A DNA stretch of 4,141 nucleotides from a virus (IMGVR_UViG_2617270961_000003), one strand, 5' to 3'. Shown: positions 1 through 4,141, counted from the stretch's first letter. Notes: generated by a model not told the origin, from the sequence alone. Made by a program: numbers and translations.

Positions 1-118
1 AGACGATGACGTCACTGCCCGGCTGTATGCGCGAGGTTACCGACTGCGGCCTGAGTTTTTTAAGTGACGTAAAATCGTGTTGAGGCCAACGCCCATAATG
101 CGGGCAGTTGCCCGGCAT
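1..118 (-). CDS. insB: IS1 InsB, 5' portion (partial, cut by the window edge; continues at 3746..4141 if the ends are joined)
   Basis: ATG at 118..116 followed by CCG GGC AAC (M-P-G-N), the recalled InsB N-terminus MPGNSPHYG. It is in the -1 frame relative to insA and overlaps the insA 3' end. Confidence 0.75.
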
Positions 119-312
119 CCAACGCCATTCATGGCCATATCAATGATTTTCTGGTGCGTACCGGGTTGAGAAGCGGTGTAAGTGAACTGCAGTTGCCATG
201 TTTTACGGCAGTGAGAGCAGAGATAGCGCTGATGTCCGGCGGTGCTTTTGCCGTTACGCACCACCCCGTCAGTAGCTGAACAGGAGGGACAGCTGATAGA
301 AACAGAAGCCAC
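37..312 (-). CDS. insA: IS1 InsA (transposition inhibitor / N-terminal part of the InsAB' transposase)
   Basis: 91-aa [46 protein letters not shown]... is the IS1 InsA sequence as I recall it, with a zinc-finger-like CxxC...CxxC N-terminus. Confidence 0.95.
55..63 (-). other. IS1 programmed -1 ribosomal frameshift motif (A6C) joining insA to insB'
   Basis: Window 55..63 gttttttaa is the reverse complement of TTAAAAAAC at the 3' end of insA, the known IS1 frameshift site for InsAB' production. Confidence 0.8.
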
Positions 313-344
313 TGGAGCACCTCAAAAACACCATCATACACTAA

Positions 345-367
345 ATCAGTAAGTTGGCAGCATCACC
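345..367 (-). repeat. IS1 terminal inverted repeat (IRL), 23 bp
   Basis: Window 345..367 atcagtaagttggcagcatcacc is the reverse complement of GGTGATGCTGCCAACTTACTGAT. It is an imperfect inverted match to the other terminus at 3731..3753. Confidence 0.9.
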
Positions 368-506
368 TTAAGTTGCATCTCAATTGTTTCTTCAGCGTAA
401 ACAGAGTTTTTATACAAACTGACACTCTGGGTATCATAGTGTAGTTTTTACGATTGTAAATATCCTGCATGCAGGAACTCATCCTTTTGGATGATATCGC
501 ATACAA

Positions 507-1466
507 TTAATTTACCATCAGTCTTAGAGCCAGTTCGTCCGGATAGGGATCGAAGTAATTCTGTGTAAGCAAGTAATCATTAGGATACTCACCCAGATAA
601 TGCTTCAGCAGAGTCAACGGCGCAAGAAGAGGTAATGTGCCAGAACGATAGTTAAGTATAACCTCGCTCAACTCTTTACGCTGGCGTGTACTTAAGTAGT
701 TACTAAAATACCCCTGTATATGCATCAGCACATTCGTGTGATTTTTACGTGATGCAGGTTTTCTGAGAATCGCCATCAGCTTATCACGATACACCTCAAA
801 GTATGATTCAAGGTCCGCCCACTCGTGTATTGCAGCCACAAATGGTCCCATATCTTTATAGCCTGCCTGACTATGCGCCAACAACTGAAGCTTATAACGA
901 CTATGAAAAGCTAATAACTCTCTTCTTGATAATTTCTCCTTGTAAAGGTGATTGAGCTCATGCAAAGCAAAAACTCTTTCAACAAAATTCTCACGAAGCA
1001 CTGGATCATGTAATCGCCCATCCTCTTCAACCGGTAGCCAGGAAAACTTTTCCATCAAAGTGCTCGTAAATAGTCCCACTCCATCTTTACGACCTCGATT
1101 ACCATTTTCATCATAGACACGCACGCGCTCCATGCCACAGCTGGGAGATTTAGCACAAACCACAAACCCCGATACATCCTTTAATTTGTCCATATAAGAA
1201 CGACTAAACTCTGTCATTCTCTCTGTCACATCCTCATTCTGGTCGTGGCTGAAACACATCCGTATATTTCCTTGCGTCGAGCGCACAAGACGTAGAGCAG
1301 GACGCGGAACTGGCAGCCCTATAGCCATTTCCGGACATACTGGTCTGAATGTTACCCATTCCACTAATTTGTCCATTAAAAAGTCAGTTCTTTTGTGACC
1401 ACCATCAAAACGAACAGCAGAACCGGCCAAACAACCGCTGATTCCAATCACAGGTTTTTTTATCAT
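507..1466 (-). CDS. DUF523/DUF1722 fusion protein (TudS-like thio-nucleobase desulfidase-type N-terminal domain, YbgA-like C-terminal domain)
   Basis: 319-aa ORF. The N-terminal third has DUF523/TudS hallmarks: GISGCLAG (Cys12), RPVCPEMAIGLPVPRP (Cys44) and KSPSCG (Cys104, Cys110). The C-terminal half looks like the YbgA/DUF1722-type helical domain. A strong Shine-Dalgarno (GGGGGAG) sits 5 nt upstream of the ATG at 1466. Confidence 0.8.
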   Translation of the reverse strand: MIKKPVIGISGCLAGSAVRFDGGHKRTDFLMDKLVEWVTFRPVCPEMAIGLPVPRPALRLVRSTQGNIRMCFSHDQNEDVTERMTEFSRSYMDKLKDVSGFVVCAKSPSCGMERVRVYDENGNRGRKDGVGLFTSTLMEKFSWLPVEEDGRLHDPVLRENFVERVFALHELNHLYKEKLSRRELLAFHSRYKLQLLAHSQAGYKDMGPFVAAIHEWADLESYFEVYRDKLMAILRKPASRKNHTNVLMHIQGYFSNYLSTRQRKELSEVILNYRSGTLPLLAPLTLLKHYLGEYPNDYLLTQNYFDPYPDELALRLMVN

Positions 1467-1658
1467 ATTCTCCCCCTTGACTAATTCATTAACACATAAA
1501 CTGTGTAGTGCACGGAATAAATTGCCTTTCTGGCGTCATCACTGACAATTTTTCTGTTATGGACTATTCCTAATATAGTATGGAAGTTCTTTAAGTGATC
1601 GGTCGTAATCATCTATCTTTCATACTTACTCTCAACTATCAAAAGTACAGGATTTATT

Positions 1659-2183
1659 ATGAAGTTATGGCCTGTGTTGACTGGCATTGCACTCTCTTTC
1701 ACTCTTATAGCATGTAAGGCCCCGACACCACCTAAAGGTGTGCAGCCGATTACAAATTTTGACGCCAACCGCTACCTCGGAAAATGGTATGAAATAGCTC
1801 GCCTCGAGAACCGGTTCGAACGTGGTCTGGAACAGGTCAGCGCTACTTATGGAAAACGGAACGACGGAGGGATTCGTGTACTTAACCGTGGATACGATCC
1901 AACGAAAAATAAATGGAGCGAGAGCGAAGGTAAAGCATACTTTACTGGAGATACTAAAACTGCAGCATTGAAGGTTTCGTTTTTTGGCCCCTTCTATGGT
2001 GGCTATAATGTAATCAAACTGGATGATGAGTATAAGTATGCTCTTGTCAGTGGTCCGAACAGAGAATACCTATGGATTCTGGCAAGGACCCCAACTATTC
2101 CAGATAAAGTAAAAGCAGACTATGTGCGAACCGCTCAAAAGTTGGGATTCAATGTCAATGAATTATTATGGGTTAAACAATAA
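1659..2183 (+). CDS. blc: Outer-membrane lipoprotein Blc (bacterial lipocalin)
   Basis: 174-aa ORF with a lipoprotein signal peptide and lipobox (LIAC, Cys19). Long collinear similarity to E. coli Blc as recalled (NFDAxRYLGxWYEIAR, FERGLExV, SEGKAYFTG, AALKVSFFGPFYGGYNVI, YLWIL.RTPTI), but clearly divergent from it, roughly two-thirds identity by eye. Confidence 0.9.
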   Translation: MKLWPVLTGIALSFTLIACKAPTPPKGVQPITNFDANRYLGKWYEIARLENRFERGLEQVSATYGKRNDGGIRVLNRGYDPTKNKWSESEGKAYFTGDTKTAALKVSFFGPFYGGYNVIKLDDEYKYALVSGPNREYLWILARTPTIPDKVKADYVRTAQKLGFNVNELLWVKQ

Positions 2184-2211
2184 AATCCCTACCCGAAATA
2201 ATACTTATTAG

Positions 2212-2240
2212 AAAAAAACCAGCCTTTGGGGAGGCTGGCT
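2212..2240 (-). terminator. Rho-independent terminator for minus-strand transcription (candidate tR' of the Q-controlled late unit)
   Basis: On the minus strand: GC-rich stem CCAGCCT / AGGCTGG (2238..2232 and 2225..2219), 6-nt loop CCCCAA, then a T7 run (2218..2212). On the plus strand the hairpin has no following T-tract, so it is unidirectional. Confidence 0.55.
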
Positions 2241-2297
2241 AAATCAGGAAACAAGCTGTTATATGATAATAACTACGTTGCGATTCCAACATTTAAA

Positions 2298-2326
2298 ATG
2301 TTAGACTAATGACAATCAGACAGCAA
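2298..2326 (-). promoter_or_regulatory. Candidate sigma70 promoter immediately downstream of Q (PR'-like late promoter)
   Basis: Minus strand TTGCTG (2326..2321), 17-nt spacer, TAACAT (2303..2298). Position just after the Q stop and before the terminator matches lambdoid PR'/qut architecture. Sequence match to consensus is only moderate. Confidence 0.3.
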
Positions 2327-2338
2327 CTTTTCCTTTAA

Positions 2339-2716
2339 TTATTTCGAACAATCAGCATCCATCTCCAATCGGAGATCCAACACCATCAGCATACCCTCCA
2401 CTACGCCCTCAGCTTTCTGAAGCATCCTGCCAACCCAACAATCAGATCGCCCATGCTTACGTGCAAGCGCCATAAAAGTCATGCCGCCGACATAATAGTC
2501 CACCAATAAATCATGCAAATCGCTGTTGTTCTTTTTCAGACGGGCCATGCACCCGCAAATGATCATCGCGTCATCGTCACAACATTGTGGGCGAGATTTT
2601 ACTTTTGAAGGAATTAATCCCTTAAAACCGGCGGCAATGGACGACCAGGTCACATCTTCATGATTATTAGCCGCCCACGCTCCCCAACGCTCAAGAACCA
2701 TCTGAATATCACGCAT
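2339..2716 (-). CDS. quuD: Phage antitermination protein Q (DLP12 QuuD-like)
   Basis: ORF-track protein contains [35 protein letters not shown]...[16 protein letters not shown] (a Cys-rich zinc-binding motif), matching the DLP12-type Q antiterminator as recalled. I place the start at the first ATG (2716..2714), which has GGAG 7 nt upstream; the track's 2731 start is a TTG and less likely. Confidence 0.8.
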
Positions 2717-2801
2717 CAACTTACTCCACAAAACTCAGACCAGAACGCCAATTACAAGCAAAAATCAACAAAACAGTATTAGTTGATTGTTATCTCTGAC
2801 T

Positions 2802-2939
2802 TCATACTCCTGCTCCTGTCAGTGTTTTGGCGTAATTCTTCAGTATTCGGTAATCGGTCAAAACAGAACCGGGGAAACGATATAAGCGCAGACGCCCCCA
2901 GCGGTGGCGAAGAAGTTCTGCCATATTAAACTCAAACAT
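2802..2939 (-). CDS. ylcG: Small ORF (45 aa) between rusA and Q, position-equivalent to DLP12 ylcG
   Basis: My own translation: [45 protein letters not shown]. Its ATG (2939..2937) overlaps the rusA stop (TGATG), and GGGG lies about 8 nt upstream. It is below the ORF-track size cutoff. The identification rests on synteny and size from memory. Confidence 0.45.
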   Translation of the reverse strand: MFEFNMAELLRHRWGRLRLYRFPGSVLTDYRILKNYAKTLTGAGV

Positions 2940-3301
2940 CATTCATTCCCCATTTCGGTGATGGTCAGTTCCAGCCTCCCACCTTTGGTAACAGGCATCT
3001 TCACAACGCGGTAATCAACGACCTGAGCATCATCCAGCCAGAAACCTGCTTTAGTGAGTGCGTCAAAAGCGGCTTTTTGCAGATTATCCAGGTCACGGCG
3101 ACGGCGATCCGGCATGTGGCACTCAATGCGGATTTTCACAGGCATAGTCAGGCCGATATCCAGCATTGCGTTTTTAATGATTCGGGCGACGTTATCGCGG
3201 TATGCCTGCCCCTCTGCGCTGACGTGCGTGCGCCCGCGATTATGGCGGTAATAGCGATTATTGCTCGGAGGCCAGGGTAATGTGATGCTGTAGGTATTCA
3301 C
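2939..3301 (-). CDS. rusA: Crossover junction endodeoxyribonuclease RusA (Holliday junction resolvase), lambdoid prophage type
   Basis: 120-aa [40 protein letters not shown]...[10 protein letters not shown], essentially identical to E. coli K-12 DLP12 RusA as recalled. The start codon in this sequence reads GTG and overlaps the upstream ybcO-frame stop (GTGA). Confidence 0.95.
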
Positions 3302-3426
3302 GCCTTAATAACCCCCTCTTTCAGCCAGATAACCTGTGTTCTCGCCATACCTTCCAGCGCGCATTCTTTTGCATATGCAGCATCGACTTGCTTGGCATGC
3401 CCTTTACCGGCAATCTTCTGTATGCG
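3298..3426 (-). pseudogene. ybcO: ybcO-like remnant: only the C-terminal ~42 codons remain open upstream of rusA
   Basis: Minus-strand frame ending at TGA (3300..3298) translates ...[40 protein letters not shown], matching the recalled YbcO C-terminus. The same frame is closed by TAG codons at 3429..3427 and 3435..3433, and no ORF of full YbcO size exists. Confidence 0.5.
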
Positions 3427-3507
3427 CTAAACCTAGATAGAATCCACTCTGTGCACATTGAAGCCCGCTCTATGCTTCCTTTCAGGTATTGAAGGGATTG
3501 AGATGGG

Positions 3508-3744
3508 CTAAGCATTATTGGCCTCCTGCATCAGGAGAAAGACAATCATGGAGGCGCGGAGAGGTCTGGTATCAAATATTGGGCTTACGCCTTTTGCATC
3601 CACACACCATTCAGTTAACTGGTCTAAGATAGAAATCCTGTATTTCTCAATAATCGGCCATGAAGCGCTCGGATCATTGCAGTAGTCAGGCAAATGATTT
3701 AATGGCTCAAAAGTTGTATCAGCATTTCCGGGTAATGACTCCAA
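3508..3744 (-). CDS. Hypothetical 78-aa ORF of unknown family; 5' end lies inside the IS1 terminal repeat (possible IS1-truncated gene or hybrid ORF)
   Basis: ORF-track frame starting at TTG 3744..3742, which is inside the IS1 inverted repeat. It is in the same frame as the ybcO-like remnant but separated from it by amber stops. I recognise no family. Coding status is uncertain. Confidence 0.25.
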
Positions 3745-3753
3745 CTTATTGAT
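3731..3753 (-). repeat. IS1 terminal inverted repeat (IRR), 23 bp
   Basis: Window 3731..3753 ggtaatgactccaacttattgat is the IS1 right-end repeat and pairs imperfectly with IRL at 345..367. Confidence 0.9.
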
Positions 3754-4141
3754 AGTGTTTTATGTTCAGATAATGCCCGATGACTTTGTCATGCAGCTCC
3801 ACCGATTTTGAGAACGACAGCGACTTCCGTCCCAGCCGTGCCAGGTGCTGCCTCAGATTCAGGTTATGCCGCTCAATTCGCTGCGTATATCGCTTGCAGA
3901 TTACGTGCAGCTTTCCCTTCAGGCGGGATTCATACAGCGGCCAGCCATCCGTCATCCATATCACCACGTCAAAGGGTGACAGCAGGCTCATAAGACGCCC
4001 CAGCGTCGCCATAGTGCGTTCACCGAATACGTGCGCAACAACCGTCTTCCGGAGCCTGTCATACGCGTAAAACAGCCAGCGCTGGCGCGATTTAGCCCCG
4101 ACATAGCCCCACTGTTCGTCCATTTCCGCGCAGACGATGAC
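3746..4141 (-). CDS. insB: IS1 InsB, 3' portion (partial, 5' end lies beyond the window edge / at 1..118)
   Basis: Track [51 protein letters not shown]...[12 protein letters not shown] matches the C-terminal ~125 aa of IS1 InsB as recalled. The frame stays open to the window end. Confidence 0.9.

Follow-up and report, generated by a model that had tools for sequence, protein, structure and literature searches.

A 4141-bp Escherichia coli-type contig that resembles a circle is probably a chromosomal lambda-like prophage remnant bracketed by IS1

The viral sequence IMGVR_UViG_2617270961_000003 is a stretch of 4141 nucleotides, here called the window, which carries parts of the insertion sequence IS1 at both of its ends and a 3363-bp segment of a lambda-like prophage between them. 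The reading preferred here, with a probability of roughly 0.8, is that the window represents a chromosomal remnant of a lambda-like prophage lying between two IS1 copies of the same orientation, and that its circular appearance stems from the points inside IS1 at which the assembler stopped. Such an arrangement is ordinary and of a known kind. An initial annotation, made from the sequence alone, had read the window as a circular permutation of one IS1 plus the segment, and hence either as a circular molecule or as the repeat unit of a segment bracketed by directly repeated IS1 copies. A segment bracketed by direct IS1 copies, or an assembly effect, is the part of that proposal best supported by the present analysis, whereas the circle and the tandem array are weakened by a recurrent assembly stop at IS1 coordinate 365-368 and by the 171-nt overlap of a comparable contig.

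The two terminal parts of the window together make up a single IS1. The same 10 nucleotides, AGACGATGAC, stand at 1-10 and at 4132-4141, corresponding to IS1 coordinates 358-367, and a check of terminal overlaps from 1 to 199 nt returned none besides these 10. When 3731-4141 is joined to 11-367, the product is exactly 768 nt long and constitutes a complete IS1 on the minus strand. This joined element is identical to the IS1A of E. coli C at 767 of 768 positions, with the sole mismatch at IS1 coordinate 601 (window 3898), and shares 90.6% identity with the IS1F of strain K-12. The earlier statement that 1-367 and 3731-4141 are halves of one IS1 is thus correct to the base, as is its arithmetic of 367 + 411 - 10 = 768. 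The left inverted repeat (IRL; GGTGATGCTGCCAACTTACTGAT, 345-367) and the right inverted repeat (IRR; GGTAATGACTCCAACTTATTGAT, 3731-3753) agree at 18 of 23 positions. The zinc-ribbon and helix-turn-helix (HTH) domains of InsA and the DDE_Tnp_IS1 domain were all recovered with Pfam (PF03811, PF12759, PF03400). In length, in its 23-bp repeats, in the insA and insB' frames with their A6C site, in its domains and in its near-identity, the element has the characters of the IS1 family, and the match is far beyond chance. The IRL-side part is also 100% identical to the IS1 ends of five other draft contigs, JOQS01000155.1 among them. Complementarity of the two ends is suggestive of closure, and is not proof of it.

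The window is the reverse complement of a complete contig, the 4141-bp JNSA01000143.1 of the draft assembly GCA_000704985.1. Its ends were therefore set by the assembler and not by the placement of a window, and the sequence is not a deposited plasmid record. The 39-amino acid (aa) product truncated by the IRL-side end also stands at the ends of six other contigs from four other draft assemblies (JJLT01, JNMV01, and two contigs each from JNMO01 and JOQS01), whose accession numbers lie near that of the source. In all six, the contig runs into IS1 through the IRL, its left end, and breaks off at IS1 coordinate 365-368; the stop of the window at 367 is therefore recurrent and not special to this contig. 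Four of the six are 19-36 kb long and contain housekeeping genes; the ordinary chromosomal genes on them include ppk/ppx, dinB and bet. Because one end is fixed by this recurrent stop, complementarity requires only that the other end fall within a few tens of bases. By our own arithmetic, the odds of an overlap of 0-20 nt are about 3% if the second end is independent of the first and uniformly distributed across IS1. The initial annotation had held that chance placement of a window is unlikely to produce such ends; the ends are, as stated, those of an assembly contig. A count of 3 samples with this contig was set aside as evidence of reproducibility, the other contigs having counts of 1 or 2 and the count perhaps arising from mirrored copies of one record.

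One of the six contigs, JOQS01000155.1 (2084 bp), has IS1 stubs in direct orientation on both sides, with IS1 197-768 at its start and 1-367 at its end. Its self-overlap amounts to 171 nt, compared with the 10 nt of the window, and this group of assemblies therefore yields IS1-bracketed segments without a fixed closure overlap. An assembler that closes circles would leave a constant overlap, and the k-mer or read overlap normally left on a closed circle is longer than 10 nt. The stops on the IRR side, at 358 in the window and at 197 in JOQS01000155.1, lie directly before sites at which IS1A and IS1F differ (357 and 196, respectively), and those on the IRL side, at 365-368, fall 4-7 nt short of the next such site at 372. 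These positions hint that the stops may mark branch points among IS1 variants, an idea that is unproven and on which no reliance is placed. The segment enclosed by JOQS01000155.1 is 1145 bp long and holds one 201-aa open reading frame (ORF) of no identified family; its IRR-side IS1 is a variant with single-nucleotide polymorphisms (SNPs) at 393, 396 and 444.

Between the two IS1 parts, the segment 368-3730 is nin/Q-region DNA of a lambda-like prophage that sits at the lambda attachment site. Of 5426 complete E. coli genomes, the collection to which the genome comparisons given here refer, 627 contain 80% or more of this segment, and the best matches are 99.9% identical. In STEC309, the integrase of the lambda-like prophage that contains the segment lies directly next to ybhC, and hence at the lambda attachment site. 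Free lambda-like phages carry the segment at 94% identity. Relatives of the window share the lambdoid nin-Q order, with colinear ninX, rusA, ylcG and Q and an integrase at the lambda attachment site; this context is annotated in STEC309, ET650, PSS-08-2 and HeN100.

Closing the window across its ends gives a joint that reads ...GCATTTCCG | IS1 | TTAAGTTGC..., across which there is no 9-bp target duplication. The two IS1 ends therefore do not derive from one simple insertion, and belong to different insertion events or copies. Each of the two junctions between IS1 and the segment occurs, exactly and in the same orientation, in one complete genome. Junction A (367/368), in an AT-rich spacer upstream of a YbgA-family gene, is found in ET650 as one side of a simple IS1 insertion, which lies between an HTH gene and the YbgA-family gene and is accompanied by a 9-bp duplication of TTAAGTTGC. 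Junction B (3730/3731) is found in PSS-08-2, with the IS1 likewise within ninX. The other side of that IS1 is joined, without a duplication, to DNA near xis/int that lies about 5 kb away in STEC309 coordinates, an arrangement that reads as an adjacent deletion. In HeN100, an IS1 situated 58 bp further into ninX is associated with a similar 5-kb deletion, and in CAVP888 an IS1 located 71 bp from junction A is joined to the ybhB side. The IS1 copies at or near the junctions have the orientation of the window in all four genomes, and in three of them (PSS-08-2, HeN100 and CAVP888) one flank passes to distant DNA without a duplication, as in an adjacent deletion. Together, these genomes indicate that, at the lambda attachment site, repeated IS1-mediated adjacent deletions are eroding the prophage from either side. 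Both inner junctions of the window are documented as stable chromosomal junctions of this prophage, in direct orientation. When IMG/VR viral contigs, the representative genomes of GTDB and metagenome contigs from JGI were scanned, neither junction sequence gave a match.

The IS1 at junction A of ET650 (ET650 sequence 6333-7100) is itself a mosaic. Its coordinates 1-461 equal the IS1 of the window, and from 462 onward there are 29 differences, nearly all at positions where the K-12 IS1F also differs. Mosaics of IS1A and IS1F therefore exist, and this one points to an exchange between IS1 subtypes by recombination or gene conversion. A second ET650 stretch, 4593-5359, is listed with the same observation.

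From these findings, the origin of the contig may be reconstructed as follows. A degraded piece of a lambda-like prophage would reside at the lambda attachment site, between ybhC and ybhB/bioA, with one IS1 at the target TTAAGTTGC upstream of the YbgA-family gene and a second IS1 inside ninX; the source strain would thus carry both copies in its chromosome, at single copy. Unable to pass a multi-copy IS1 of 768 bp, the assembler would have prolonged the unique 3363-bp segment into IS1 at each end, as far as stops determined by sequence at IS1 coordinate 367 on the IRL side and 358 on the IRR side, the latter presumably set by the assembler in the same manner as the former. The two stubs would then amount to one IS1 plus 10 nt and mimic a circular permutation. 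Such a structure predicts outer junctions beyond the contig. On the left, ...CCAACTTTAAGTTGC|GGTAATGAC would be expected, and the IRR end of the left IS1 would give an outer junction of ...TGACTGGCATGTTTACCAACTTTAAGTTGC|GGTAATGACTCC. On the right, the junction would read ...GGCAGCATCACC|GCATTTCCGTAATACCATTTG if the IS1 in ninX were a simple insertion with duplication, or CATCACC|CAGTGCCGTAAG if the deletion partner were that of PSS-08-2. Through RecA-dependent recombination, direct IS1 repeats of this kind can lead to the loss or duplication of the segment, and IS1 generates adjacent deletions as well, as seen at this locus in related genomes.

Most of the other explanations considered are not mutually exclusive with bracketing by IS1. 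Thus, the same IS1-segment-IS1 unit could have moved as a Tn9-like composite transposon to a plasmid or to another chromosomal site. Direct IS1 copies around a short segment are indeed the architecture of Tn9 (Tn9 is cited in PMC7986276), but the inner junctions of the window appear in situ: junction A keeps the 9 bp that are duplicated in ET650, junction B is the ninX junction seen in PSS-08-2, whose prophage occupies the lambda attachment site, and no plasmid in PLSDB carries the unit. Transposition as a composite unit is accordingly very unlikely.

The absence of replication functions, which the initial annotation had pointed out in arguing against a plasmid, was borne out. In the window, no Rep or Mob domain was detected by Pfam among the ORFs of at least 40 aa that were tested, no replication-control RNA by Rfam, no tRNA, no family of iteron-like repeats and no DnaA box, whether exact or with 1 mismatch. 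None of the 72,556 PLSDB records matches the whole window or represents a similar small plasmid, and those that cover at least 58% of it are 0.28-4.9 Mb long. One of these, CP061260.1 (280 kb), has a match that begins exactly at 368 and was rejected as a candidate, for it holds the uninterrupted prophage with no IS1 at that point. A small cryptic plasmid could be thought of on account of the small size and apparent terminal redundancy of the contig; against it stand the lack of the replicon features just listed and of any similar small plasmid, together with the colinearity of all of the non-IS content with chromosomal prophages, a cargo of common chromosomal DNA. This alternative is effectively refuted.

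A free circle of 4131 bp, comprising the segment and one IS1, would be released by RecA recombination between the two IS1 copies or excised during intramolecular replicative transposition of IS1 (adjacent deletion), and would have been sequenced together with the chromosome. The joint IRL|TTAAGTTGC...GCATTTCCG|IRR, lacking a duplication, is what either process would leave, non-replicative circles of the r-determinant with one IS1 are documented (PMC7986276), and IS1-mediated adjacent deletions are seen at this locus in related genomes. A circle devoid of replication or partition functions could not, however, reach assembly-level abundance in culture. Both junctions are, moreover, stable in the chromosomes of other strains, and the contig ends at stops typical of the assembler. 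The signal of closure is the 10-nt terminal repeat, which lies in a multi-copy insertion sequence and has one end at a recurrent stop. A free circle is therefore considered highly doubtful, even more so than a Tn9-like transposon.

The sole mismatch to IS1A provides a further point of comparison. The SNP at 3898 converts a Ser of InsB to Cys (HVISKRY to HVICKRY), a rare change that is private to the IS1 of the window; among the best full-length IS1 matches listed from the complete genomes, identity is 99.9%. The cut-off 131-aa InsB product is absent from the clustered protein collection. The same 125-aa InsB variant does occur on a 5.4-Mb contig of GCA_922829415.1 and on one metagenome scaffold, in IS1 copies that are otherwise different. 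The private SNP leans slightly toward specific IS1 copies over a collapse of all IS1 copies, and a pair of sister IS1 copies in the chromosome would account for it equally well.

This SNP bears on a tandem amplification, in which at least two head-to-tail units, each of the segment and one IS1, would have been formed by unequal recombination and their array collapsed by the assembler. The structure of the contig is exactly one repeat unit, the private SNP fits IS1 copies that are derived from each other, and the r-determinant of R100.1/NR1 and Tn9 are precedents for amplification and circle formation between direct IS1 copies (PMC7986276). Given the recurrent stop at 365-368, a single-copy segment flanked by IS1 nevertheless predicts the same ends, and the cargo genes offer no obvious selectable benefit of dosage. 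An overlap of 10 nt is not a signature of collapse. Amplification is thus regarded as rather improbable, and it remains improbable overall that the contig represents a real and abundant 4131-bp unit, whether an IS1-generated circle or a chromosomal tandem amplification. A real circle, a Tn9-like mobile unit or an amplification finds no support here.

Several points weigh against a single-copy chromosomal remnant between two IS1 copies. The two junctions are never combined in one complete E. coli genome of the collection, so that their coexistence in the source strain is inferred and not seen. The 10-nt complementarity may still reflect the closure logic of an assembler. If the IS1 stubs were a consensus drawn from many copies collapsed together, the private SNP would be unexpected; it is in keeping with reads that come from one or two particular copies, as would also be expected of a real circle or an amplified unit.

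The features of the window are collected in Table 1. Gene calls rest on Pfam and on the RefSeq annotation of near-identical chromosomes, and all of the genes lie on the minus strand except that of the lipocalin.

Table 1. Coordinates of IS1 parts, junction flanks and prophage genes in the window.
Feature	Position	Strand	Size	Basis or remark
IS1 part, IRL side	1..367	-		IS1 coordinates 367 down to 1; window end inside IS1
insA	37..312	-	91 aa	ORF list; Pfam Zn_ribbon_InsA, HTH_Tnp_IS1
AAAAAAC (A6C) motif	55-61	-		Programmed -1 frameshift motif, minus-strand reading
Junction A flank	368..376			TTAAGTTGC, next to IRL
YbgA-family protein	507..1466	-	319 aa	2-thiouracil-desulfurase-like/DUF523 (PF04463) and DUF1722 (PF08349)
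Blc-like lipocalin lipoprotein	1659..2183	+	174 aa	Pfam Lipocalin_2, E = 7e-44; prophage cargo
Terminator-like hairpin with T run	2217..2240	-		About 100 nt downstream of Q
Late antiterminator Q	2339..2716	-	125 aa	Pfam Phage_antitermQ, E = 2e-51
ylcG	2802..2942	-	46 aa	STEC309 annotation at matching position; PF26818 recorded in source contig
rusA, Holliday-junction resolvase	2939..3301	-	120 aa	Pfam RusA and annotation
DUF1364 (ybcO-like) remnant	3298..3387	-	90 nt	C-terminal part; pseudogene in STEC309
ninX, cut by IS1	3508..3730	-	74 C-terminal codons	First 119 of 342 nt missing
Junction B flank	3722..3730			GCATTTCCG, next to IRR, within ninX
IS1 part, IRR side	3731..4141	-		IS1 coordinates 768 down to 358; window end inside IS1
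insB' frame	3746..4123	-		DDE transposase part; Pfam DDE_Tnp_IS1, E = 7.7e-74
Terminal 10-nt repeat	4132..4141 (= 1-10)			AGACGATGAC; only redundancy between the two contig ends

At the IRR side of the segment, the truncated ninX matches positions 46-114 only of the Pfam profile Phage_P22_NinX, and the intact ninX of STEC309 maps to window 3508-3849. The 78-aa truncated ninX ORF, which takes its start codon from IS1, is not on record in a protein look-up. Between ninX and the DUF1364 remnant lie about 120 nt without an annotated gene (3298-3507 region). In ET650 the DUF1364 gene is intact, and the homology of that genome ends at window 3387; the region of the remnant reads as a mosaic or deletion scar common to STEC309 and PSS-08-2.

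Downstream of Q, the hairpin is predicted to be a late-operon terminator of the tR' type. It is a strong hairpin within 2184-2338, set back to back against the terminus of the lipocalin gene, which converges with Q. A hit of the Rfam family RF02278, "Betaproteobacteria toxic sRNA", on this hairpin reached 28.6 bits against a threshold of 50 and was dismissed as chance. The YbgA-family gene is WP_000592546.1 in STEC309 and ET650 (RefSeq), and is prophage cargo downstream of Q. Together with the lipocalin, it occupies the interval 507-2183, which in this prophage family separates Q from the lysis cassette and corresponds to the site of the toxin genes in Stx phages, and both cargo genes are kept in free lambda-like phages at 94% identity.

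The case serves as a caution that contigs whose ends are complementary parts of a multi-copy insertion sequence look circular, yet can arise from assembler stops. Screens for small "circular" contigs in draft assemblies will accordingly catch chromosomal segments that are bracketed by insertion sequences. The locus also illustrates a known process in which IS1 copies of the same orientation progressively erode a lambda-like prophage, and in which their direct repeats can delete or duplicate the interval between them. Were the 4131-bp unit real, it would imply a higher dosage of Q, the Blc-like lipocalin and the YbgA-family gene, and would constitute an amplifiable unit like the r-determinant with prophage cargo in place of resistance genes; if amplified, it would count as a modest case of dosage change driven by IS1 in prophage cargo genes.

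Among known systems, the prophage of STEC309 and the phages Lambda_ev087 and 1H12 have the same gene order as the window, namely ninX, the DUF1364 remnant, rusA, ylcG, Q, the lipocalin and the YbgA-family gene, with 99.9% identity to the segment in STEC309 and 94% in the two free phages. Compared with prophages of the STEC309 type, the window differs in the truncation of ninX by IS1 and in the second IS1 stub upstream of the YbgA-family gene. Its IS1 resembles the IS1A type of E. coli and Shigella in the 768-bp length, the imperfect 23-bp repeats, the insA/insB' organization and the A6C site, as well as in the 9-bp duplication seen in ET650, and differs from it in the Ser to Cys SNP of InsB and in being split over two contig ends. 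IS1-mediated adjacent deletions are classical in the region of gal, the lambda attachment site and bio. The arrangements of HeN100, PSS-08-2 and CAVP888 resemble these deletions, whereas in the window the outer flanks are absent and no deletion endpoint is visible.

The r-determinant and Tn9 share with the arrangement proposed here two direct IS1 copies around a segment. RecA-dependent recombination between such copies gives rise to a non-replicative circle with one IS1, or to tandem amplification (PMC7986276), and the topology of that circle is the one at which the initial annotation had arrived. In those systems, however, the segment holds selectable resistance genes and its circularization and amplification have been shown experimentally, whereas the window holds prophage cargo and displays the equivalent of one IS1. 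Contigs of short-read assemblies that are bounded by repeats offer another comparison. In a benchmark, repeats common to different replicons blocked assembly, and Recycler, a tool that pulls cycles out of an assembly graph, often extracted mobile elements that were not plasmids (bioRxiv 10.1101/086744). The window differs from such contigs in that its 10-nt overlap is not a standard k-mer overlap; as in those contigs, a multi-copy insertion sequence breaks the assembly, and cycles of an insertion sequence and a segment can be mistaken for small circles.

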